NCBI GenBank assembly: GCA_020426545.1
Contig: JAGQPV010000001.1
Coordinates: forward strand, 1-41,901
Length of the DNA: 41,901 bases
Reading direction: 5' to 3'
From: Planctomycetaceae bacterium
GTDB taxonomy: Bacteria; Planctomycetota; Planctomycetia; Planctomycetales; Planctomycetaceae
The position numbers and the translations under genes are program-made. Under the pieces are notes generated by a model. The model made no database searches. It was not told the DNA's origin and was given only the letters and a program-made list of their open reading frames with translations. This document shows, one piece after another, positions 6,295 through 34,893 of this stretch. The stretch's first letter is position 1; every line of letters starts with the position of its first letter.

Positions 6295-8202
6295 TCAGCG
6301 TTCGCTGTTCTGCACGTAGCCCTGCACCATCCGCAGCACCGCATCCTGCTGGCCGAGACTGATGCTGGTGTGCTTGCGAAGCCGGTCCAGCAGGGCGTTG
6401 CGGGTCACCGGTTTGAGCAGATAATCGGCAATGCCGACTTCCAGACACGACAGAATCGTCTCCCGGGAACGGTCTTCACTGTTCATGATGACCGGGATTG
6501 AAATCTGTGCATTGCGAACATCGCGGATCACATCGATGCCGCTGCCACACTTCAGATGGACTTCGCAGAGAATCGCATCGGCTTCTCTGGCCAGTTCCAC
6601 GGCTTCCAGCCCGGTGGTCGCCTGGAGCACCTGGACGCCCAGCGGGAGCAGCATCAGTCGAATGACGGAGACAATACTTTCCTCATCTTCGATGACCAGC
6701 AGGGCCGGTGCCCGCTTTGCCGTCACCGAGAGCTTCCTGTCAGTCAGCGGTTCCGAAGGAGGCAGGATGACATCCATCATCTTTGCCGCCGAAGTGGCCG
6801 ACAGATGCCCGTTCACAGAGAAGCTGCTGCCCTCAGTCGGGCTGGCCCCGGTCTCCACCGCGGGCACCCGTTCCCCTTCGCTCACCGGCTCGCCGGCCGC
6901 AAACCGGGAGATATCGGCCGTCAGGCTTTCCAGCGCGGCCGCCGAAGGGGCCGGCACGGAAAACATCGAGCTGAATTCCCGTGTTTTCTGCACTGCAGAC
7001 GCGAGGCAGGACTTGAACAGTTCCGGCTTCCCGCCAGACAGTGCGGTCATCTGAGACTGCAGCCGCTGGTGCCGCTGCGGGCCGGGCAAGTCGTACAGAT
7101 CGGCCACGGCCTCGCCCACCTTCATCAGCTGCAGGAGGTGCTGCTCCGCAGTGGAACACTCGCACTCTTCCGCCGGCGTATGGTGTTCCAGCGCAAGGCG
7201 GACAAAACTGCCGGGCAGTTCCCACCGCTGAAACAGAGCCGCCGAGACGGCCGCGTGGGTGAAGGCGAATTCCTGCTGTTCCGCGATGTGCAGCTGCAGC
7301 TGGCCGACGGTCCGACAGCGTTCCAGCACCCGCTGGTAGGGTTTTCCCAGCGCACGCGCCATGACCAGGACACCCAGATCCTGCAGCAGGCCGAGAATAT
7401 GAGCGGTGTCAGCGGAAACCTGCTTCGTGCGGGCCGCAAAAGCCGAGGCACTGGCCGCAATCAGAACGGTCCGAGGACGGAACCACTGCTCGAAGCCTTC
7501 CGGCAGCGTCTGCATCAGTTTCTGCTGGGAGTTCAGCACCGTGGTCGACAGCACAATGGCAACCGTCCGCCGGATCCCCAGCAGGTTCACGGCATCGAAC
7601 ACCCGCGTCACCTTGCTCCGCACCCCCGTGGAGGAGCTGTTGACGACCTTCAGCAGTTCGGCCGTAATACGCGGATCGGTGGACAGCTCCTCCGTCAGCT
7701 CGGCCATGGAGGCGGATTCGTTGTGGAGGTACCCCGGCAGCCGCACCAGCAGCTGCGGAATCGGCGGAACGTAATCCGCATCCCGCACCAGCACCCGCAC
7801 ACTGTGCGGAATGCTGACGCCAGGCTCATCCGCCGTCAGCAGTTCGCCTTTCAGAACGTCGACGATCGTTCCGGAATCCGTCTGTGTATCGAGCAGCGTT
7901 TTCACGTTCACGCGGGCTGCTTTTCCGCGCAGAGCGGCCACGTCCTTCGCCAGCAGAATCACAGCTGGCTGCAGCAGGTCGCCCGCCAGACGCTCAATGA
8001 TTTCAAGCCCCGACAGAAAGCCCGTCAGCTCCTGCTCGACAATGACGGCGTCAATCCGCTGGTGCTGCACCGTATGGCAGAAGTCGTCAGAGGTCGCGCA
8101 GACAACCGGCTCCGCGACGGCGCTCTCCTGGATGCGCTTCGCGATCTCTGCAGCGCGGCCAGAGTTTGCACACAGGAGTGCGACGACTTGCTTGTTGTTC
8201 AC
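6295..8202 (-). CDS. HDOD-domain signalling protein flanked by two receiver-like (REC) modules
   Basis: 635 aa with a GTG start at 8202. The central segment PPIPQLLVRLPGYLHNESASMAELTEELSTDPRITAELLKVVNSSS is typical of HDOD. The C-terminal module LLVIEDEES...ILCEVHLKCGSGIDV...VIMNS...YLLKP has receiver topology. Confidence 0.9.
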   Translation of the reverse strand: MNNKQVVALLCANSGRAAEIAKRIQESAVAEPVVCATSDDFCHTVQHQRIDAVIVEQELTGFLSGLEIIERLAGDLLQPAVILLAKDVAALRGKAARVNVKTLLDTQTDSGTIVDVLKGELLTADEPGVSIPHSVRVLVRDADYVPPIPQLLVRLPGYLHNESASMAELTEELSTDPRITAELLKVVNSSSTGVRSKVTRVFDAVNLLGIRRTVAIVLSTTVLNSQQKLMQTLPEGFEQWFRPRTVLIAASASAFAARTKQVSADTAHILGLLQDLGVLVMARALGKPYQRVLERCRTVGQLQLHIAEQQEFAFTHAAVSAALFQRWELPGSFVRLALEHHTPAEECECSTAEQHLLQLMKVGEAVADLYDLPGPQRHQRLQSQMTALSGGKPELFKSCLASAVQKTREFSSMFSVPAPSAAALESLTADISRFAAGEPVSEGERVPAVETGASPTEGSSFSVNGHLSATSAAKMMDVILPPSEPLTDRKLSVTAKRAPALLVIEDEESIVSVIRLMLLPLGVQVLQATTGLEAVELAREADAILCEVHLKCGSGIDVIRDVRNAQISIPVIMNSEDRSRETILSCLEVGIADYLLKPVTRNALLDRLRKHTSISLGQQDAVLRMVQGYVQNSER

Positions 8203-12289: not shown

Positions 12290-14791
12290 ATGGCTTTACG
12301 GTGCAGACAGTTCGGCTGGTACGCTGCGCTCAGCTGCGGGCTGATCACTTTTGCGGCATACTCCGCACCTCCCGCATCTCTGCTGGCAAAGGCCGCGCAG
12401 GCTGATGCAGCTCAGTCAGAGGCAGCTCGGCCAGCTGCCGCGCAGAAGACCGAGGCCGGGCAGTTTGAGGCTCAATACCGACCGCTCATCGCTAGCTACT
12501 GCACCAGTTGTCACAGTGGCGAGAAGCCGGGGGGCGATCTGCGGCTCGACAGTCTTTCCCTCGAGCTGACGGATGCGGCAAACCGCCAGCAGTGGGGCGA
12601 GGTCGCCCGCCGGCTGGAGAACGGCCAGATGCCACCCGCGGGAAAACCACGTCCCGCGAAAGAGCAGATCGAGGCGTTTGTGAACTGGCTTGCCCCCCGG
12701 CTGCGGGTTGCCGATGCCGCTGCGCGGGACGTCGAGGGCAGGGTGGTGCTCCGGCGGCTGAACCGCGTGGAGTACGAGAACACCATCTGCGATCTGCTGG
12801 GGGTAGAAGTCGAGCTGAAGGACCAGCTGCCGGCTGACGGGTCGGCCGATGGTTTTGACAACGCGGCGGCGGCGCATCACACCTCGGCCTTCCTGATGGA
12901 GAAATATCTGGAAGCGGCCGATACGGCACTGAATGCCGCGATCGCCAACCGCCCGCAGCCACCGCCGTCGAAAACCACCCGCTACAGCATCAAAGACGTG
13001 CACCCGGTGAAGACCACCACGGAGGACGTGTATCGTTTTCGGGAGGATGGCGAAGTCGTCTGCTTCTGCTCGTCGGAATGGCACAACGTGTGGGTTTCGC
13101 CGTTCTATCCGCGTGAAGCGGGACGTTACCGGTTCCGCATATCGGCTTCCGCCTTCCAGAGCGAGGGCCAGCCGGTCGTGTTCCGTGTGACGGAAACCGG
13201 AACTCCGCTGACGGGGCTGGAGGGTCTCGTCAGTTACTGCGATGCTCTGCCCGACAAGCCCACTGTGTTTGAGTTCGTGCGGCACATGCAGCCGAAGACC
13301 ACGATTGCCATACTGCCTTACGGACTGGCCGGAGCCAACACCGTCAAGCAGACGGGGGGCGAGAAATGGGAAGGCCCCGGACTGGCAATTCAGTGGGTGG
13401 AAGTCGAAGGACCGCTGAACGAAGCCTGGCCACCGGACAGCCACCGCCGCCTGTTCGGCGATCTTCAGCAGCAGACATTCGGCATCTTTAATTTCCGCGA
13501 CCGCGTCGAAGTCGTTTCCGGCCAGCCGCTGGTCGATGCCCGGGAGATCCTCGCAAAGTTCACCCGCCGGGCCTTCCGCCGCAGCGTCACGGAAGAGGAT
13601 GTCGAGCCGTACCTGGGCATTGTGCAGGCGAAACTGGGTGAAGGCTACACCTTCGAAAACGCGATGCGGGCGGCGCTGAAGGGCGTGCTGATTTCGCCCG
13701 AGTTTCTGTTTCTGCGGGAACTGCCCGGCCGGCTGGATGACTTCGCCCTGGCCAGCCGGCTGTCGTACTTCCTGTGGAGCACCATGCCGGATGAAGAACT
13801 GTTCGCACTGGCCGAACAGCAGAAGCTGAGCCAGCCCGGGGAACTGCGGCGGCAGGTCGAGCGGATGCTGTCCGATCCGAAATCGGCGGCCTTTACAGAG
13901 AGTTTCGTCGGCCAGTGGCTGGGAGTGCGGGACATCGACACCACCGAGCCGAGCCACCTCCTGTACCCGGAGTTTGACCATCTGCTGAAGGTGTCGATGA
14001 TTCGCGAGACCGAGCTGTTCTTCGAGGAAGTGCTGCGGAACGACCTGAGCCTGACGAACTTCGTGGATTCCGACTTTCTGATACTCAATGGCCGGCTGGC
14101 GAAGCATTACGGCATTCCGGGCATTACCGGCTGGGAACTGAAACGCACGCCGGTGCCGCCGGAGAGTCATCGCGGCGGCGTGCTGACCATGGCCAGCGTG
14201 CTGAAGGTGACCGCCAACGGCACGACGACCTCACCCGTGATGCGGGGTGCCTGGGTGCTGGACCGCATTCTCGGTATGCCCGCTCCGCCACCACCCGACA
14301 ATGTGGGGGCGATTGACCCGGATATTCGCGGGGCCACCACCATTCGCGAGCAGCTGGCAAAGCATCGGTCGGTCGAGTCCTGTGCGGTGTGCCACGTTCA
14401 CATCGATCCTCCCGGCTTTGCGCTGGAGAGCTTCGACTGCATTGGCGGGTGGCGGGACCGCTACCGGGTGACCGGCAGTGGCGACTCGGTGGTGGTCGAG
14501 GGCCGGCGGATGCCGTATCACCTCGGCAAACCGGTTGACCCCTCCGACGTGATGCCCGATGGCGAACGGTTCGCGGATATCGACGAGTTCCGAAAGCTGC
14601 TGCTGCGGGACAAGCCGCAGCTGGCACGGGCGCTCACATCCAAACTGCTGGCCTATGCCACCGGGCGGGCACCGGGATTATCCGACCGCGAAGCCGTGGA
14701 TGAGATCGTGCAGCGGATCAGTCAGAAGAACTATGGACTGCGTTCGCTGATTCACGAGATAGTGCAGAGCGAAATGTTTCAGACGAAGTAA
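12290..14791 (+). CDS. DUF1592/DUF1588/DUF1587/DUF1585-type multi-domain protein with an N-terminal planctomycete cytochrome-c-like CxxCH
   Basis: 833 aa with a signal peptide. CTSCHSGEKPGGDLRLD lies near the N-terminus and CAVCH near the C-terminus. The gene sits directly upstream of a DUF1552 gene, which is the canonical planctomycete pairing. Confidence 0.85.
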   Translation: MALRCRQFGWYAALSCGLITFAAYSAPPASLLAKAAQADAAQSEAARPAAAQKTEAGQFEAQYRPLIASYCTSCHSGEKPGGDLRLDSLSLELTDAANRQQWGEVARRLENGQMPPAGKPRPAKEQIEAFVNWLAPRLRVADAAARDVEGRVVLRRLNRVEYENTICDLLGVEVELKDQLPADGSADGFDNAAAAHHTSAFLMEKYLEAADTALNAAIANRPQPPPSKTTRYSIKDVHPVKTTTEDVYRFREDGEVVCFCSSEWHNVWVSPFYPREAGRYRFRISASAFQSEGQPVVFRVTETGTPLTGLEGLVSYCDALPDKPTVFEFVRHMQPKTTIAILPYGLAGANTVKQTGGEKWEGPGLAIQWVEVEGPLNEAWPPDSHRRLFGDLQQQTFGIFNFRDRVEVVSGQPLVDAREILAKFTRRAFRRSVTEEDVEPYLGIVQAKLGEGYTFENAMRAALKGVLISPEFLFLRELPGRLDDFALASRLSYFLWSTMPDEELFALAEQQKLSQPGELRRQVERMLSDPKSAAFTESFVGQWLGVRDIDTTEPSHLLYPEFDHLLKVSMIRETELFFEEVLRNDLSLTNFVDSDFLILNGRLAKHYGIPGITGWELKRTPVPPESHRGGVLTMASVLKVTANGTTTSPVMRGAWVLDRILGMPAPPPPDNVGAIDPDIRGATTIREQLAKHRSVESCAVCHVHIDPPGFALESFDCIGGWRDRYRVTGSGDSVVVEGRRMPYHLGKPVDPSDVMPDGERFADIDEFRKLLLRDKPQLARALTSKLLAYATGRAPGLSDREAVDEIVQRISQKNYGLRSLIHEIVQSEMFQTK

Positions 14792-14881
14792 TGCAACTAA
14801 GTGGTAAACGACGCGGCGGTCGCAAAGCCTGACCGTGCTCTCTGTTCTGCTGTGGCAGCATTCCATCGACGGGATTTTCCG

Positions 14882-16213
14882 ATGACACGCCAACCTGCTC
14901 GCCCCGCCCGAACCGTGCGCGGCCAAACCGTGCCGGCCCACCGGCTGCCCCGTCGCACATTCCTGCGGGCTGCCGGCGTGGCCCTGGCTCTGCCCGCGCT
15001 GGATGCCATGGCTCCCCGCCTGGCCCGGGGTGCGGCCGGGGCGGCCGAGGGCATTCCCCGCCGGATGGTGTGCATCAACACACCCCTGGGTCTGCATCCG
15101 CCGCACTTCTTCCCCGAGGCGGCCGGCCGGGATTTCGAGCTGTCTCCGTACCTCGAAGTCCTTAAGGAATTTCGCGACGACTTCACCGTGATTTCCGGGC
15201 TGTCGCACCCGGATGTCGGCCCCAGTCACGACAGCAACCAGAGCTTTCTGACTGCGGCCCCGCACCCGGAGCAGCGGGCCGGCTTCCGCAACAGCATCTC
15301 GCTGGATCAGTTCGCCGCCGAGCAGATTTACGGGCAGACCCGGTTCCCCACCTTACCGCTGTCCTGCGAAGGTCTGAGCCTGTCGTGGACCAGAAGCGGC
15401 GCCCCTGTGCCGGCGGAGTGCTGGCCGTCGAGCGTGTTTTCGCAGCTGTTTCTGGAAGGCCGACCCGACGAGGTGCAGGCCCAGGCCCGCCGTGTGGCCG
15501 ACGGACAGAGCATTCTGGACGCCGTCCGCGGGCAGGCGAAAAAGCTCCAGCAGTCGCTGGGTGCGGGCGACCGCGGGAAGCTTGACGAATACTTTACCAG
15601 CGTCCGCGAGCTGGAGGGCCGGCTGGCCCAGGCCGCCATCTGGGCGAAGAAGCCAAAGCCGAAGGTCGATGTCGAGCCGCCGGTCAACATCCGCAACAGT
15701 GCGGATCTCATCGGCAAGACACGGCTGTGGTTCGACCTGATTCATCTGGCCCTTGAGACCGACTCCACCCGGCTGGTCACTTTGCAGCTGCTGGGCACCA
15801 GCAGTGTGCCGCCCGTGCCGGGCGTCAGCCAGGGGCACCATGATCTGTCGCATCATGGCCAGGATCCGACAAAAATCGCCCAGCTGAAGGCCCTGGAAAT
15901 CGAGAAGATGAAGACCCTTCGCGACTTCCTCAACCAGCTGAAATCCACTTCCGAGGACGGCGAAACGCTGCTCGACCGCACGACGGTGTTCTTCAGCAGC
16001 AACCTGGGTGATGCGGGGAAGCACAGCGTGAAGAACATGCCCGTGCTGCTGGCCGGGGGCGGGTTCCGGCATGGCCAGCACCTGGCCTTCGATGAAGACA
16101 GGCACCCGCCGCTGTGCAACCTGTATGTGAGCATGCTGCAGCGGATGGGCATTGAAGCCGACCGGTTCGGCAGCAGCACAGGCACGCTGACGGGCCTGGA
16201 GCTGCGAGGTTGA
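14882..16213 (+). CDS. DUF1552 domain protein with a twin-arginine (Tat) signal
   Basis: Track ORF 14801..16213. I prefer the ATG at 14882 (MTRQ...RLPRRTFLRAAGVALALPALDAMA). The text SGLSHP...HDLSHHG...MPVLLAGGGFRHG is typical of DUF1552. Confidence 0.85.
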   Translation: MTRQPARPARTVRGQTVPAHRLPRRTFLRAAGVALALPALDAMAPRLARGAAGAAEGIPRRMVCINTPLGLHPPHFFPEAAGRDFELSPYLEVLKEFRDDFTVISGLSHPDVGPSHDSNQSFLTAAPHPEQRAGFRNSISLDQFAAEQIYGQTRFPTLPLSCEGLSLSWTRSGAPVPAECWPSSVFSQLFLEGRPDEVQAQARRVADGQSILDAVRGQAKKLQQSLGAGDRGKLDEYFTSVRELEGRLAQAAIWAKKPKPKVDVEPPVNIRNSADLIGKTRLWFDLIHLALETDSTRLVTLQLLGTSSVPPVPGVSQGHHDLSHHGQDPTKIAQLKALEIEKMKTLRDFLNQLKSTSEDGETLLDRTTVFFSSNLGDAGKHSVKNMPVLLAGGGFRHGQHLAFDEDRHPPLCNLYVSMLQRMGIEADRFGSSTGTLTGLELRG

Positions 16214-31138: not shown

Positions 31139-32734
31139 TCAGCGATGGCATACAGCGGGAGCGGTTCCGGCTGAGACCGTACGGGTTGCCTCCCCGGCAG
31201 AATGTTCTCCGGCAGCTGGTTCGCCGGCAGCCGGGTCTCTCGGAAGACTGCGGGAATCCGCCAGCAGCCGCTTCAGGCTCTGATAATTCACCGGCTTGAT
31301 CAGATGCCTGTCGAAGCCCGCCTGCATGGCCCGCTGCACATCTTCCGGCTGACCATAGCCCGTCAGCGCGATCAGGCTGATCTGACTTCCGTCCGGCATA
31401 CGGCGAATCCGTTCGGCCACTTCGTACCCGTTCAGGCCGGGCAGGCCGATATCAATCAGAGCGACATCACATACATGCGTGCCGGCCACCTCGACGGCTT
31501 CGCACCCGTCACCGCAGGCCAGCACCTGGTGACCTTCCAGTTCCAGCAGCAGGGCCAGCGTTTCGCGAATATCTTTCTGGTCCTCCACCAGCAGCACCCG
31601 CAGACCGTCTGACTCCGCCTCTTCCTCCGGCACGACTGTTTCCACAGTCTCTGCCTGCCGGGAAGCCAGTGGCAGCTGAACCAGGAACTCGCTGCCTGGC
31701 CCCGGCTCGGCTGCGCCGGCCGTCACCGAACCATGGTGCAGCCCGACCAGCGTTCTCACGAGCGACAGTCCGATTCCCAGTCCTTCTTCTGTCGAACCGG
31801 TATTGGCCCCCGCCTGCACGAAGGGTTCAAAGATCGAAGCCCGCAGTTCCCTGGGAATGCCGGGACCATTATCCCTCACTCGCACCATCGCGCAGTCGTC
31901 TTCCACCGACAGAGCGATCTGGATCCGCCCGCCAACGGGTGTGTACCTGACAGCATTCGCGAGAATGTTGGACAGAACCTGCGTGATGCGGGTGGGATCC
32001 ACTTCCACCAGCACGGGCTGCTCCGGCAGACTGCAGATCAGCTCATGCTGCCGGCTGGTCAGCTGCGGCTGTACGGTTTCCACTCCGGCCCGCACCAGAT
32101 CGGCCAGGTTGGCCGTCTCAATTTTCAGGCGGATCTTTCCCTGCGAAATCCGGGACAGATCCAGCAGGTCGTCCAGCAGCCGCGAGAGTTGACGGCACTG
32201 CCGGTCAATGACTCCCTGCGCAGCAGCACGGACGGAATCCACGGGGCCAGTGCTGTTCAGCAGGCCCACCGCGTTGCTGATGGCAGCCAGCGGATTCCGC
32301 AGCTCGTGCGACAGGACTGCCAGGAATTCATCCCGCTGGCTCACTTCGTTCCGTGCTTTTTCTGCCGCCAGCTTGTAACCGGTGATGTCTCTCAACGTGG
32401 CAAGAAACGCCGGTCGGTCCTGCCAGCGGGTCTCCACGGTTCTCATTTCCACGCAGCGGGTGGTGCCGTCCTTCTGCACCAGATGAATTTCCGCCTGTTC
32501 GCCGGGCGCTACCGGCAGACCGAACGGCTCGCCCAGCAGCGCATCCGCATCCCGGCCCAGCAGTTTCCCGGCGGCCGCATTCAGAAAGGCAATCGTGCCG
32601 GTTCCCGTGAGAATCACCACGCCATCGGCACTGCTGGTCACAACGGAATGGAAGTAGCTGCGGCTGGCTTCCAGCTGGCGACGCAATTCGTCGATTTGTT
32701 TCATGTCTCTGCGTTCGGACCGACGGCTGCTCAT
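31139..32734 (-). CDS. PAS-containing hybrid sensor histidine kinase (HisKA + HATPase_c + C-terminal receiver)
   Basis: H-box LAVLSHELRNPLAAI; N-box NILANAVRYT; G-boxes VRDNGPGIP and GLGIGLSLV. The receiver is LRVLLVEDQKD...VALIDIGLPGLNG...HLIKP. The ATG at 32734 overlaps the kaiB-like stop (ATGA); an alternative ATG is at 32704. Confidence 0.9.
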   Translation of the reverse strand: MSSRRSERRDMKQIDELRRQLEASRSYFHSVVTSSADGVVILTGTGTIAFLNAAAGKLLGRDADALLGEPFGLPVAPGEQAEIHLVQKDGTTRCVEMRTVETRWQDRPAFLATLRDITGYKLAAEKARNEVSQRDEFLAVLSHELRNPLAAISNAVGLLNSTGPVDSVRAAAQGVIDRQCRQLSRLLDDLLDLSRISQGKIRLKIETANLADLVRAGVETVQPQLTSRQHELICSLPEQPVLVEVDPTRITQVLSNILANAVRYTPVGGRIQIALSVEDDCAMVRVRDNGPGIPRELRASIFEPFVQAGANTGSTEEGLGIGLSLVRTLVGLHHGSVTAGAAEPGPGSEFLVQLPLASRQAETVETVVPEEEAESDGLRVLLVEDQKDIRETLALLLELEGHQVLACGDGCEAVEVAGTHVCDVALIDIGLPGLNGYEVAERIRRMPDGSQISLIALTGYGQPEDVQRAMQAGFDRHLIKPVNYQSLKRLLADSRSLPRDPAAGEPAAGEHSAGEATRTVSAGTAPAVCHR

Positions 32735-33039
32735 GACACACCCTGATGTAAGCTCTCATCCAGTTCGTAACTGGCCAGCAGCAGACCTTCGCGCACCTGC
32801 TGTTCATTCCGCAGGTTTCCCACGATTCGTCGCTGCGGGCCGGGAGCCTGCTGCACCAGGACCGGTGTTGCCAGCAGGTTTTCCCTGCGGACAGCATCCG
32901 GATTTCTCAGAACGTCGATCACATGCAGTTCATACTGCTCGTGGTAATCCGTGTTGCAGACCTGTCGAATCACATCGATTTCCCGGGCGTAACCGGCCGG
33001 GTCGCCAGCAATGAAGTAACAGAAACAGTAACGTGACAT
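32731..33039 (-). CDS. kaiB: KaiB-like protein (thioredoxin-like fold family)
   Basis: 102 aa. CFCYFIAGDPAGYAREIDVIRQVC...YELHVIDVLRNPDAVRRENLLATPVLVQQAPGPQRRIVGNLRNEQQV aligns by eye with the KaiB core (LYVAG...[25 protein letters not shown]...PVRRIIGDLSD). Confidence 0.85.
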   Translation of the reverse strand: MSRYCFCYFIAGDPAGYAREIDVIRQVCNTDYHEQYELHVIDVLRNPDAVRRENLLATPVLVQQAPGPQRRIVGNLRNEQQVREGLLLASYELDESLHQGVS

Positions 33040-33382
33040 TCAACGGGCTGCCTTTGCAGACATGATCCGGAAATCGCTGAACCGCCCCGCGACAGCCCCC
33101 GTGGCACGGAGCAGCCCGGTCAGGGGGATTTCCCCTGATCGCCTTCGACTGATCCACAAGATGCCCTGAAGAAGCAGTTCCCGGGCCAATGCGCAGCCCG
33201 TCAGTTCCAGCCACCGGGCAGTCTTCTGATCGGTTCTACCTGAGGCAGCTGCACGGCCGGAGAATCACGCGGGCTGACAGTGCAGCTCGCGGGATCATCC
33301 TGAAACCATACAGCCGGGCCGGCCTGCGCGGACTGGCAGCCGGTATTCAGCGGGTGAAGGAACGAACCAGACAGATTCTGCA

Positions 33383-34198
33383 TCACACAGAGCTGGAGGT
33401 CACCTTCAGCTCGCGGGCCATCTCACGCACCAGCGATTCCGGATCAAGCGGCTTGGCAAACCAGCGGTCGATACCCTGCGGCCCGGTCTGGATGTCGTAT
33501 TCCTCCGGTTTGCTGCCGCTGATGGCAAAGACCTTCAACCCTTCCAGCGCGGGATCACGGCGGATCTGCTGCAGAGTTTCCGGTCCGCTGCAGCGGGGCA
33601 TCCGCATATCCAGCAGGACCACATCCGGACGGTCGGTCGCACGCAGCAGATCGAGTGCAGCACACCCGTCCTGCGCGGTCACCACTTCAAAGCCGCTCAT
33701 CCGCAGAAATCCGGCCAGCAGCTCGCGCTCGTTGGAATCGTCCTCGACGACCAGAGCCCGCATCCCGCCACCTGAAGAGGGCGCGTGCAGCTGAGATTCC
33801 ACCGACTGCAGCTGGCTCAGCAGACGTTCAAATGTGGATTCCACATCGGTGATACTGCCCATTGACAGCTGCTTCTTCAGCAGATGCAGCGCCAACGTGG
33901 CACCATTCAGCCGGTTGGCCAGGCTGTGGCGGAACTCCCGGTTCCGTGCCTCCTGCTCGGACGAGGCTGCAGCAGCGCTCGGCGAAGCAGCAGTCACGGG
34001 CGACTTCGCGGAACTTGCACTGGTGGTGGTATTCTCCGCGGGCAGCCGGGACGCGACTTCGTCCCGCAGCACCTTGATTTCAGGAGGCGCATCGACACCA
34101 AGTTTGACGATGTTGCCGCGGACGCGAAGCACTTCGATCGTAATTCCGATGTTGGGAAATACGATCTTCTGATCAGGCCGACGAGACAGGACAAGCAT
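33383..34198 (-). CDS. CsrA-domain / H-box helix / receiver-domain fusion protein (271 aa)
   Basis: The ATG at 34198 is preceded by GAAGGGGAAAGGAAACCCGGT. Residues 1-52, MLVLSRRPDQKIVFPNIGITIEVLRVRGNIVKLGVDAPPEIKVLRDEV, align with E. coli CsrA [47 protein letters not shown]. Residues ~88-135 form an EFRHSLANRLNGATLALHLL HisKA-like helix. Residues ~146-260 are a receiver (VVEDD, VVLLDMRMP, FAISG, FAKP). The frame stays open upstream to a GTG at 34642, so a longer N-terminus cannot be excluded. Confidence 0.8.
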   Translation of the reverse strand: MLVLSRRPDQKIVFPNIGITIEVLRVRGNIVKLGVDAPPEIKVLRDEVASRLPAENTTTSASSAKSPVTAASPSAAAASSEQEARNREFRHSLANRLNGATLALHLLKKQLSMGSITDVESTFERLLSQLQSVESQLHAPSSGGGMRALVVEDDSNERELLAGFLRMSGFEVVTAQDGCAALDLLRATDRPDVVLLDMRMPRCSGPETLQQIRRDPALEGLKVFAISGSKPEEYDIQTGPQGIDRWFAKPLDPESLVREMARELKVTSSSV

Positions 34199-34302
34199 AC
34201 CGGGTTTCCTTTCCCCTTCAGTCGGTTCCACTGGCGAACCATCGCCAGGAACCGAAATCCCCACCCTGGGATCCTGCGCAGCGACGGCCTGACTCTCAGG
34301 TC

Positions 34303-34328: not shown

Positions 34329-34613
34329 TGTCCGCAGAGCCTGCTCAGTTGACGGCAGGCGGCAGAATGGAAATGATGCGGAAGCCCTGCGGACTGCTGA
34401 TGGTTCACACTCCACAAAAAGAGTGCAACTTCCCAGTAACCGGGTACTCCTGCCTTCAGTTCGAACTTCTGCTCGTTACCGACAGCAGCCAGCTGGCTGC
34501 ACTGCAAACCACACCACTGAACAAACAACGGTGCGGACAGGATTCGGACAGCATTTGAAGGAGAACGGCTCTCCGCAATCCCTGCGAAGACCCTTCCGTG
34601 GCGCCCATGGTCT

Positions 34614-34638
34614 GAGCATCCATGCTCGGATTCCATGT
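34614..34638 (-). promoter_or_regulatory. Pair of CsrA-consensus-like GGA sites (ACAUGGAAUC and GAGCAUGGAUGCUC)
   Basis: The minus strand reads ACATGGAATC-C-GAGCATGGATGCTC. The second is a palindrome that can present AUGGAU in a hexaloop, and CAUGGAUG matches the CARGGAUG core of the CsrA SELEX consensus except for R to U. GGA spacing is 13 nt. Confidence 0.4.
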
Positions 34639-34893
34639 TCACAGCATTTTTCTAGCGTCGCCCCCCTCATCCGTCAAGATCGGTTTTCCCCAGGTTTTTT
34701 GAACGACGTAAATCACTGCTGTGGCATAAGATGGATTCGACCAGCCCTTGGGCACTCCTGCTGAACCCGGAATGCGGGGGACATCGGTCTTGCAGAACCG
34801 ACGGAATTCTGCACGAAATCCCGCAAAATCGGCACCAGCGGGACAAACCGCGGTATTGACACAGCCATCGCAAACTGCGTATTCTGACATCAT
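34639..34893 (-). CDS. Possible small Cys-containing protein (84 aa), unknown family
   Basis: An ATGATG at 34893/34890 is preceded by GGAGAG 9 nt upstream (MMSEYAVCDGCVNTAVCPAGA...). GC3 is lower than in neighbouring genes. Its stop TGA overlaps (GTGA) a GTG that opens the long frame of the CsrA-fusion gene. No family recognised. Confidence 0.3.
   Translation of the reverse strand: MMSEYAVCDGCVNTAVCPAGADFAGFRAEFRRFCKTDVPRIPGSAGVPKGWSNPSYATAVIYVVQKTWGKPILTDEGGDARKML

Follow-up and report, generated by a model that had tools for sequence, protein, structure and literature searches.

The 41,901-nucleotide stretch analyzed here, which we call the window (Planctomycetaceae bacterium, assembly GCA_020426545.1, contig JAGQPV010000001.1, positions 1 to 41,901), carries on its reverse strand a gene whose product joins an RNA-binding domain of the CsrA/RsmA type to a HisKA-like DHp helical hairpin and a complete receiver domain (REC). 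We refer to this product as the CsrA-DHp-REC protein. It belongs to a large planctomycete family whose genes often lie near a hybrid histidine kinase and are preceded by leaders rich in GGA motifs. The gene and the modules of its product are as follows.

33383–34198, reverse strand: coding sequence of the CsrA-DHp-REC protein, 271 residues, stop codon included (translation of the open reading frame, Pfam, and the same architecture in the 120 best homologs)
34043–34198, reverse strand: CsrA/RsmA-type RNA-binding domain, residues 1–52 (PF02599, invariant residues and strands in an AlphaFold2 model)
33974–34042, reverse strand: low-complexity Ser/Ala/Thr linker, residues 53–75 (low predicted local distance difference test score, pLDDT, and mostly gaps in the family alignment)
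33788–33973, reverse strand: predicted HisKA-type DHp helical hairpin without an ATPase domain, residues 76–137 (AlphaFold2, hhalign and conservation)
33413–33763, reverse strand: receiver domain, residues 146–262 (PF00072, catalytic residues, AlphaFold2 and Foldseek)

Read from 34198 to 33383, the frame gives an unbroken 271-residue translation that begins MLVLSRR and ends in a stop codon. The codons behind the residues on which the argument turns are CAC for His91 (33928–33926) and GAT for Asp197 (33610–33608), with Asn95 at 33916–33914. No stop or frameshift separates the modules, and their three-part order, proposed in a first-pass annotation made from the letters alone, recurs in each of the 120 best homologs. 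As judged from sequence, the true start is the ATG at 34198 and not an upstream GTG at 34642, because all 120 homologs open with MLVLSRR and a conserved ribosome-binding element precedes this ATG. A 419-residue reading from GTG 34642, present in a mechanical list of open reading frames, was rejected on homolog starts, the conserved ribosome-binding site (RBS) and codon GC, since its extension has a non-coding-like GC content by codon position (0.57 at third positions, against 0.72 in the gene).

The homologs are the 120 best matches in a collection of 5.8 billion proteins. They are 239–327 residues long and 42–53% identical to the window protein by BLASTP, or 45–61% within the 120-sequence alignment, and every one contains both Pfam domains, CsrA and Response_reg. 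Databases name them either 'response regulator' (Pirellulales, Pirellulaceae, Gemmataceae, Thermoguttaceae and Rhodopirellula) or 'carbon storage regulator CsrA'. When residues 1–140 were searched against 1.84 billion cluster representatives, at least 376 clusters at 50% identity were retrieved at E ≤ 1e-10; the 150 best representatives measure 93–358 residues and, because none is longer than 358, no family representative among them has room for an ATPase domain. With one genome taken per species there were 277 relatives, the best 80 of which all fall in Planctomycetota (Pirellulales, Gemmatales, Planctomycetales and Isosphaera/Singulisphaera), and the cultured carriers include Bythopirellula polymerisocia and Stieleria tagensis. 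An identical protein is also present on an independent metagenome contig.

The architecture is not new: it is widespread, catalogued and uncharacterized. A passage in PMC2222644, citing the Galperin 2006 census (J Bacteriol 2006; 188:4169), gives 'ANTAR and CsrA' as the RNA-binding output domains of response regulators, so that, going by that passage, the domain combination has been on record for two decades. The first-pass annotation knew of no characterized example, yet the architecture itself is neither rare nor unrecorded. In a 2025 review (PMC12471899, Table 2), E. coli CsrA is entered as an 'orphan RR' whose RNA-binding domain is C-terminal; this seems to be a misreading of the census, and we did not use it. 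We found no earlier description of the residue signature of the kinase-less DHp, of the conserved partner kinase, joined in some loci by KaiB, or of a leader that looks autoregulatory.

The reading of residues 1–52 as a full CsrA fold is upheld by profile and conservation alike. PF02599 matches residues 1–51 on profile positions 1–50 of 53 with 57.9 bits (gathering cut-off 27, E = 9.5e-16), and the motifs named in the first-pass annotation are present as GNIVKLGVDAP and as VLRDEV with Arg45, the counterpart of E. coli R44. In the alignment of 120 homologs, L2, L4, R6, P15, P38, R45 and E47 are invariant, RNA-binding residues among them, and R7 is kept in 110; R45 and E47 correspond to R44 and E46 of E. 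coli CsrA, which contact RNA. An AlphaFold2 model built on the same alignment (mean pLDDT 86) has beta strands at residues 11–36 and leaves beta1 and beta5 unpaired in the monomer, as would be expected of a strand-swapped CsrA dimer. Scores against the NCBIfam CsrA equivalogs are below their cut-offs (NF002469, 50.6 against 73; TIGR00202, 49.7 against 70.1), and no dedicated NCBIfam model for the whole protein was found. Because of these sub-threshold scores, the N terminus is, by sequence, a CsrA-family domain and not a canonical CsrA ortholog, and the word 'global' in the earlier description of a global regulator under phosphorylation control is not supported. One related locus (L067, 1038–1181) also encodes a CsrA-like segment that stands alone, about 5 kb upstream of the CsrA-DHp-REC gene and with 47% identity to residues 1–49; at least some genomes therefore have both forms.

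Beyond the CsrA domain, pLDDT falls below 50 at linker residues 55–70, and the spacer between CsrA and the H-box ranges from 7 to 43 residues across the family. The chain then forms a predicted hairpin of two helices, 76–112 and 119–137, at pLDDT 87–95 in the full model (H3–41 and H44–66 when the hairpin is modeled in isolation). The first-pass annotation had placed a HisKA-type H-box here, and at the level of the family this is well founded. His91 and Asn95, the residue at H+4, are kept in 120 of 120 homologs. Aligned by hhalign, the family profile of this middle module matches the HisKA profile of the neighboring kinases with 95.7% probability (E = 8.5e-9), placing His91 on their phospho-accepting histidine. 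Individually, 19 of 53 family members match PF00512 (HisKA), all weakly (best 3.1e-5), and 2 of 53 weakly match SPOB_a; Hpt (PF01627) is matched neither by the window protein nor by any of these 53 middle domains at E ≤ 10.

Its residues also set the module apart from working kinases. The family motif is H-x-[LV]-R-N-R-L-N-x-A-x-L-A-L, against S-H-E-L-R-N-P-L-A-A in the neighboring true kinases: H+1 is acidic in 15 of 120 family members versus 48 of 48 kinases, and the proline at H+5 has become arginine in 103 of 120 versus none of 48. The absence of an ATPase domain, as first noted, is confirmed by a Pfam result without HATPase_c and by the 358-residue ceiling among the best representatives. 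With no HATPase_c and with H+1 acidic in so few members, the hallmarks of a functional autokinase are missing. In four HisKA kinases, Willett and Kirby (PMC3510030) found the acidic residue at H+1 to be needed only for kinase activity and the Thr or Asn at H+4 only for phosphatase activity. The hairpin thus appears to be a divergent HisKA DHp lacking its ATPase domain and, because the acidic H+1 is mostly lost while the Asn at H+4 is invariant, it bears the signature of a DHp that would be unable to autophosphorylate yet could handle the phosphoryl group of a receiver.

The receiver is catalytically complete, as had been claimed, with E152-D153, D197, S227 and K249 all in place. PF00072 matches residues 149–258 with 74.7 bits (cut-off 30.2, E = 8.4e-21), and D153, D197, K249 and a Ser or Thr at 227 are found in 120 of 120 homologs, with E152 in 115. 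In the AlphaFold2 model the domain spans residues 147–270 at pLDDT above 90, and Foldseek relates it to CheY, PhoB and RR468 (E about 1e-8, target template-modeling score about 0.85–0.9); a Foldseek search with the whole model returned essentially receiver structures alone. From the end of DHp helix 2 to receiver strand beta1 there are 11 residues in the window protein and 11 to 62 across the family. By the secondary-structure spans of the model, helix 2 finishes at the height of His91, with 9 residues between it and the receiver in the window protein; on these spans, and not on coordinates, Asp197 could reach His91 in cis or across a dimer.

Within the receiver (33413–33520, reverse strand, residues 227–262), an invariant Trp246 occupies the switch position of CheY Tyr106, and alpha4 is shortened and carries an invariant G239-P240-x-G242. 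This unusual and highly conserved alpha4-beta5 face may be an output surface.

Upstream of the start codon, the leader contains a series of elements.

34202–34216, reverse strand: Shine-Dalgarno hairpin GGG-GAAAGGAAA-CCC, carrying GGAAAGGA (34214–34207) with its GGA in the predicted loop
34317–34328, reverse strand: leader hairpin GGCA-CGGA-UGCC, of the A-N-GGA-U type, 127 nucleotides upstream of the ATG (site scan)
34570–34590, reverse strand: stem-loop SL2, UCUUCGCA-GGGAU-UGCGGAGA, a GGA-loop hairpin of a kind that starts +57 to +69 from the -10 box in 11 of 22 leaders
34614–34627, reverse strand: stem-loop SL1, GAGCA-UGGA-UGCUC, a GGA-loop hairpin of a kind that starts +22 to +27 from the -10 box in 13 of 22 leaders
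34649–34677, reverse strand: promoter-like element TTGACG-17 nt-TAGAAA, shared with related loci

The octamer GGAAAGGA is close to gene-specific. It occurs 72 times in the 1.79 Mb of 80 related loci (both strands), and 42 of these occurrences lie within 30 nucleotides upstream of a CsrA-DHp-REC start; the window, which reads GGGGAAAGGAAACCCGGTATG at the RBS, has no other copy in its 42 kb. A hairpin loop is predicted to hold the GGA of the RBS in 23% of loci, a share that drops to 9% when the flanks are shuffled. Further upstream, the first hairpin recurs in 13 of 22 leaders against 0.67 expected, a comparison whose P value is optimistic because its positional window was chosen after inspection. 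The recurrent hairpins share a GGA in a loop of 4–8 nucleotides on stems of unrelated sequence (GGGC/GCCC, GUGGUA/UACCAC, CGGGAA/UUCCCG and, in the window, GAGCA/UGCUC). A promoter-like CTTGt/TTGAC-17-TAGAAC is common to 21 distantly related planctomycete loci at -206 to -240 (L005, L015, L017, L019, L021 and L022 among them), and the window leader is longer, at about 440 nucleotides from its element. TTAGAAC is 38-fold enriched in leaders; a generic sigma-70 scan made no call at the element, since the -10 box ends in C or A and not in T.

In the leaders, GGA density is about twice background at -200 to -100 and five times background at -20 to -1, with a flat antisense TCC control. Each 230-nucleotide leader has on average 1.86 sites of the type A-N-GGA-U or A-N-GGA-N-G, where 0.31 would be expected and 0.35 occur further upstream. 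In the window, the only cluster of at least four such extended sites within 200 nucleotides lies at 34583–34674, on the strand of the gene. The words most enriched in leaders, at about 12- to 17-fold, are AGGATGT, ACAAGGA, CATGGAT and GCAGGGA, and they resemble the consensus obtained for E. coli CsrA by in vitro selection (SELEX), RUACARGGAUGU. A hairpin loop closed by a stem of 4 bp or more could hold 46% of all leader GGAs; the figure is 31% for background and 34% for sequence further upstream. This conserved leader, with its promoter, its GGA-loop hairpins and its nearly gene-specific GGAAAGGA Shine-Dalgarno element, points to autoregulation of the gene of the kind seen with CsrA.

Rfam had no match in the window at gathering score and none around the gene at E ≤ 1, and no RNA family of the CsrB/Rsm type was found nearby. 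For one leader clade, aligned with MAFFT, RNAalifold returned just one stem, the invariant GCGAG/CUCGC, with no covariation, and MAFFT misaligned the variable hairpins. In the leaders of L017, L022, L047, L048, L052, L056, L058 and L071, the segment closed by this invariant long-range GCGAG...CUCGC stem holds the first GGA hairpin together with an unpaired CA(U/C)GGAUGAC, which suggests that the clade has a larger structured leader RNA absent from Rfam.

Downstream of the gene, on the same strand, lie two further genes that bear on its function.

31139–32734, reverse strand: hybrid histidine kinase PAS-HisKA-HATPase-REC, 531 residues (Pfam domains)
32731–33039, reverse strand: KaiB-like gene, 102 residues (PF07689, 65.3 bits), overlapping the start of the kinase gene by 4 nucleotides

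By eye the kinase has no hydrophobic segment, and this adjacent, soluble hybrid kinase is probably the phosphodonor. We counted neighborhoods across the 80 related loci, asking for a kinase ortholog within about 3.4 kb of the CsrA-DHp-REC gene, and found one in 45, at 36–48% identity over about 350–550 residues and with an alignment that always runs through REC. It lies downstream on the same strand in 20 of these loci, downstream and convergent in 19 and upstream in 6, and because the linkage survives rearrangement into three gene orders, it argues for the two genes being a functional pair. A stand-alone REC, 42–51% identical to that of the kinase, adjoins the gene in only 4 of the kinase-less loci, one of them confirmed from called genes. 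Among the neighboring genes in the window, Pfam detected no Hpt domain.

The KaiB-like gene holds the same place, between regulator and kinase, in 6 of 80 loci, and the window contains no kaiC. Cyanobacterial KaiB binds a pseudo-receiver domain, and by analogy the KaiB-like protein may modulate one of the local receivers. A weak terminator-like hairpin (33312–33324, reverse strand) lies 60 nucleotides past the regulator stop codon, within the 343-nucleotide gap before the KaiB-like gene, and transcription of the regulator may be separate from that of the KaiB-kinase pair. A 61-residue open reading frame in the same region (33386–33201, reverse strand), which starts inside the regulator stop codon (GTGATG), has no Pfam match, is unconserved in related loci and is probably no gene. 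TPR, beta-helix and dehydrogenase genes in the neighborhood were considered as parts of the system and set aside because they are not conserved next to the homologs.

We think it somewhat probable, on all of this, that the CsrA-DHp-REC protein is a phosphorelay-controlled, self-regulating RNA-binding response regulator in which His91 is a Spo0B-like transfer site, a built-in phosphatase center, or both. The N-terminal domain would bind A(N)GGA motifs held in hairpin loops, and the DHp hairpins would pair as a four-helix bundle, joining two chains so that the CsrA modules form an obligate interdigitated dimer. Signal input would come from the neighboring soluble kinase (PAS-HisKA-HATPase-REC, 32734–31139). 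His91 could then act as a relay site of the Spo0B/ChpT kind, from kinase Asp to His91 to Asp197, as the center of an Asp197 phosphatase working through Asn95, or in both roles; we favor such a role because the partner always has a REC, or a stand-alone REC replaces it, and no HPt lies nearby. The phosphorylation state of the receiver would set the access of RNA to the CsrA surfaces, and the protein would repress its own translation through the GGA-loop hairpins of the leader and the RBS within the GGAAAGGA hairpin. The earlier suggestion that phosphorylation controls the regulator is, given the hybrid kinase linkage and the GGA sites of the leader, a reasonable one.

A more specific version can be put forward only tentatively: His91 would take phosphate from the receiver of the kinase and pass it on, within one dimer, to Asp197, whose phosphorylation state would toggle the CsrA-type domain between free and RNA-bound forms, and the GGA-hairpin leader would provide feedback. 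If true, this would make a direct path from a two-component system to translation and a covalent control of CsrA, independent of small RNAs (sRNAs) and of FliW, that is undescribed so far.

Several observations weigh against the phosphorelay reading as a whole. Taken alone, the window protein has nothing significant in Pfam at residues 53–148 and no HisKA match at E ≤ 1, so that the H-box claimed at His91 stands for the family and not for this sequence by itself. At H+3, where 107 of 120 members have Arg and 4 have Lys, it alone has Ala (A94), and its H-box therefore escapes Pfam detection. Searched as a profile against the PDB, the middle domain gave chance matches only (such as cyclin and tropomyosin, E ≥ 0.14), and Foldseek on the isolated hairpin was non-specific, with HK853 at rank 9 (E = 3.1, query-normalized score TMq 0.69) and nothing significant. 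Because the linker between CsrA and DHp is modeled as disordered and varies in length, rigid allosteric coupling between the two is unlikely, and the signal has no obvious route. No kinase ortholog was found nearby in 35 of the 80 loci by the criterion used (in one of them, L050, split matches fell just below it). The positional windows for SL1 and SL2 were picked after the data had been inspected, and in global minimum-free-energy folds 27.6% of leader GGAs are unpaired against 24.6% in the control, which is not significant; the local hairpin test was the informative one. A separate canonical CsrA could bind the GGA-rich leader in place of the CsrA-DHp-REC protein, and the DHp of the kinase could phosphorylate Asp197 directly. 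Finally, the literature searched holds no characterized CsrA-receiver protein, and in that respect the first-pass annotation was right.

Direct phosphorylation is the core of the strongest rival, a two-step system in which the REC of the kinase is a mere sink or regulator, the hairpin does no more than dimerize the protein and, by way of Asn95, hasten the loss of phosphate from Asp197 as a built-in phosphatase, and His91 is never phosphorylated. The invariance of the phosphatase-specific Asn at H+4, together with the loss of the kinase-specific acidic residue (PMC3510030), is what this arrangement would predict, and the 35 loci that have no adjacent hybrid kinase by our criterion also fit it. 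The isolated DHp of EnvZ, moreover, reportedly keeps phosphatase activity when its catalytic domain is removed. However, a structural or phosphatase role tolerates substitution of the histidine in some kinases, whereas His91 is invariant in all 120 homologs. The partner, too, is always hybrid and sometimes replaced by a stand-alone receiver, with no HPt nearby, which is the signature of a multistep relay that needs a histidine carrier. We regard the two-step system as possible but rather unlikely.

Less probable still, at what we would call a long shot, is that RNA is the input: CsrA would sense the abundance of GGA-rich RNA, its binding would alter phosphotransfer between DHp and REC, and the real output would be another response regulator or the hybrid kinase itself. 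The C-terminal position of the receiver invites this idea, as DHp-REC looks more like a relay module than like the classical REC-output arrangement; the flexible linker leaves no obvious control route from REC to CsrA, and the conserved histidine could hand phosphate onward. Yet a second response regulator is not conserved beside the gene, the GGA sites over its own RBS suit a translational effector, and the fact that the N terminus of CsrA is part of its RNA-binding surface is enough to explain the unusual domain order. That the gene is an artifact, whether a misassembly or frameshift fusion or a decaying gene with a dead CsrA or His motif, as the atypical A94 and the sub-threshold H-box of the window protein might suggest, is effectively refuted by its conservation across genomes, with a continuous architecture that recurs in 277 species genomes, some of them from cultured strains, and in 376 or more clusters (50% identity), an identical protein on an independent contig, intact functional residues and codon-position GC typical of coding sequence.

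Set beside known systems, the phosphorelay reading combines familiar parts in an unfamiliar way. Like CsrA of E. coli and RsmA/RsmE of Pseudomonas, the protein fits PF02599 with its N-terminal 52 residues and keeps the GGA-contact residues (L2, L4, R6, R7 and R44/E46 in E. coli numbering), and A(N)GGA motifs occupy hairpin loops of its own leader and overlap the Shine-Dalgarno element, an arrangement known from classical CsrA targets including csrA. The canonical protein, in contrast, is a stand-alone chain of about 60 residues controlled by decoy sRNAs, whereas here the domain is covalently fused to DHp and REC. In Bacillus subtilis it is a protein, FliW, that sets CsrA activity, as a protein module would do here in place of titration by sRNA; unlike the fused receiver that we presume to be the controller, FliW is an antagonist protein in its own right, coupled to flagellin secretion. 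One survey (PMC4682653) suggests that Planctomycetes, among other phyla, may control CsrA by FliW instead of BarA-UvrY; the window contains no FliW or flagellar gene. The ANTAR regulators (AmiR, EutV and PdtaR) share an output of RNA binding and not DNA binding, and RNAs bearing the EutV binding site also titrate that regulator (PMC7602753), but they use a coiled-coil fold, act by antitermination, place REC at the N terminus and have no internal His-containing DHp.

The middle module has its own counterparts. Spo0B and ChpT likewise use a dimerizing helical hairpin that makes a four-helix bundle, with a phosphorylatable histidine and no kinase activity of their own, standing between a receiver and a terminal receiver; they differ in being separate proteins with a degenerate ATPase-like domain, whereas here a lone hairpin is fused to the terminal receiver and the output domain. 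The case for such transfer at His91 is circumstantial, built on the invariant histidine, the always-hybrid kinase or stand-alone REC neighbor and the two weak SPOB_a matches. With the bifunctional HisKA kinases (CrdS, HK853 and EnvZ) the family shares H-x-L-R-N-x-L, which aligns with SHELRNPL, and an Asn at H+4 that is the phosphatase residue (PMC3510030); it departs from them in having no HATPase_c, in having mostly lost the Glu or Asp at H+1 and in its change from Pro to Arg at H+5. The 'CsrA' class of Galperin 2006 has the same domain combination and, as it appears through PMC2222644, is a catalog entry only.

To our knowledge, the established controls of CsrA are decoy sRNAs and partner proteins, FliW among them, and the only RNA-binding response regulators that have been studied use ANTAR. 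A CsrA wired to a receiver would be a third route, by which a kinase signal would act on translation without a transcription step, in a large family within Planctomycetota, a phylum whose regulation is poorly known. The locus supplies handles for such work: a candidate kinase, candidate residues in His91 and Asn95 beside the receiver Asp, and candidate RNA ligands in SL1, SL2 and the RBS hairpin. More broadly, a DHp that is kinase-dead but of the phosphatase type, joined to a receiver, would show in compact natural form how relay or phosphatase modules can be made from kinase parts.

The rest of the window has the gene content of a planctomycete, with PSD/PSCyt domains, DUF1552 and a sulfatase. 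A 635-residue protein at 6295–8202 (reverse strand) combines HDOD with a C-terminal receiver and is another non-canonical response regulator in the window. On the forward strand, 12290–16213 encodes a planctomycete-specific pair, a multidomain PSCyt/PSD protein (DUF1592, 1588, 1585, 1587 and 1595) followed by a DUF1552 (HXXSHH) protein.

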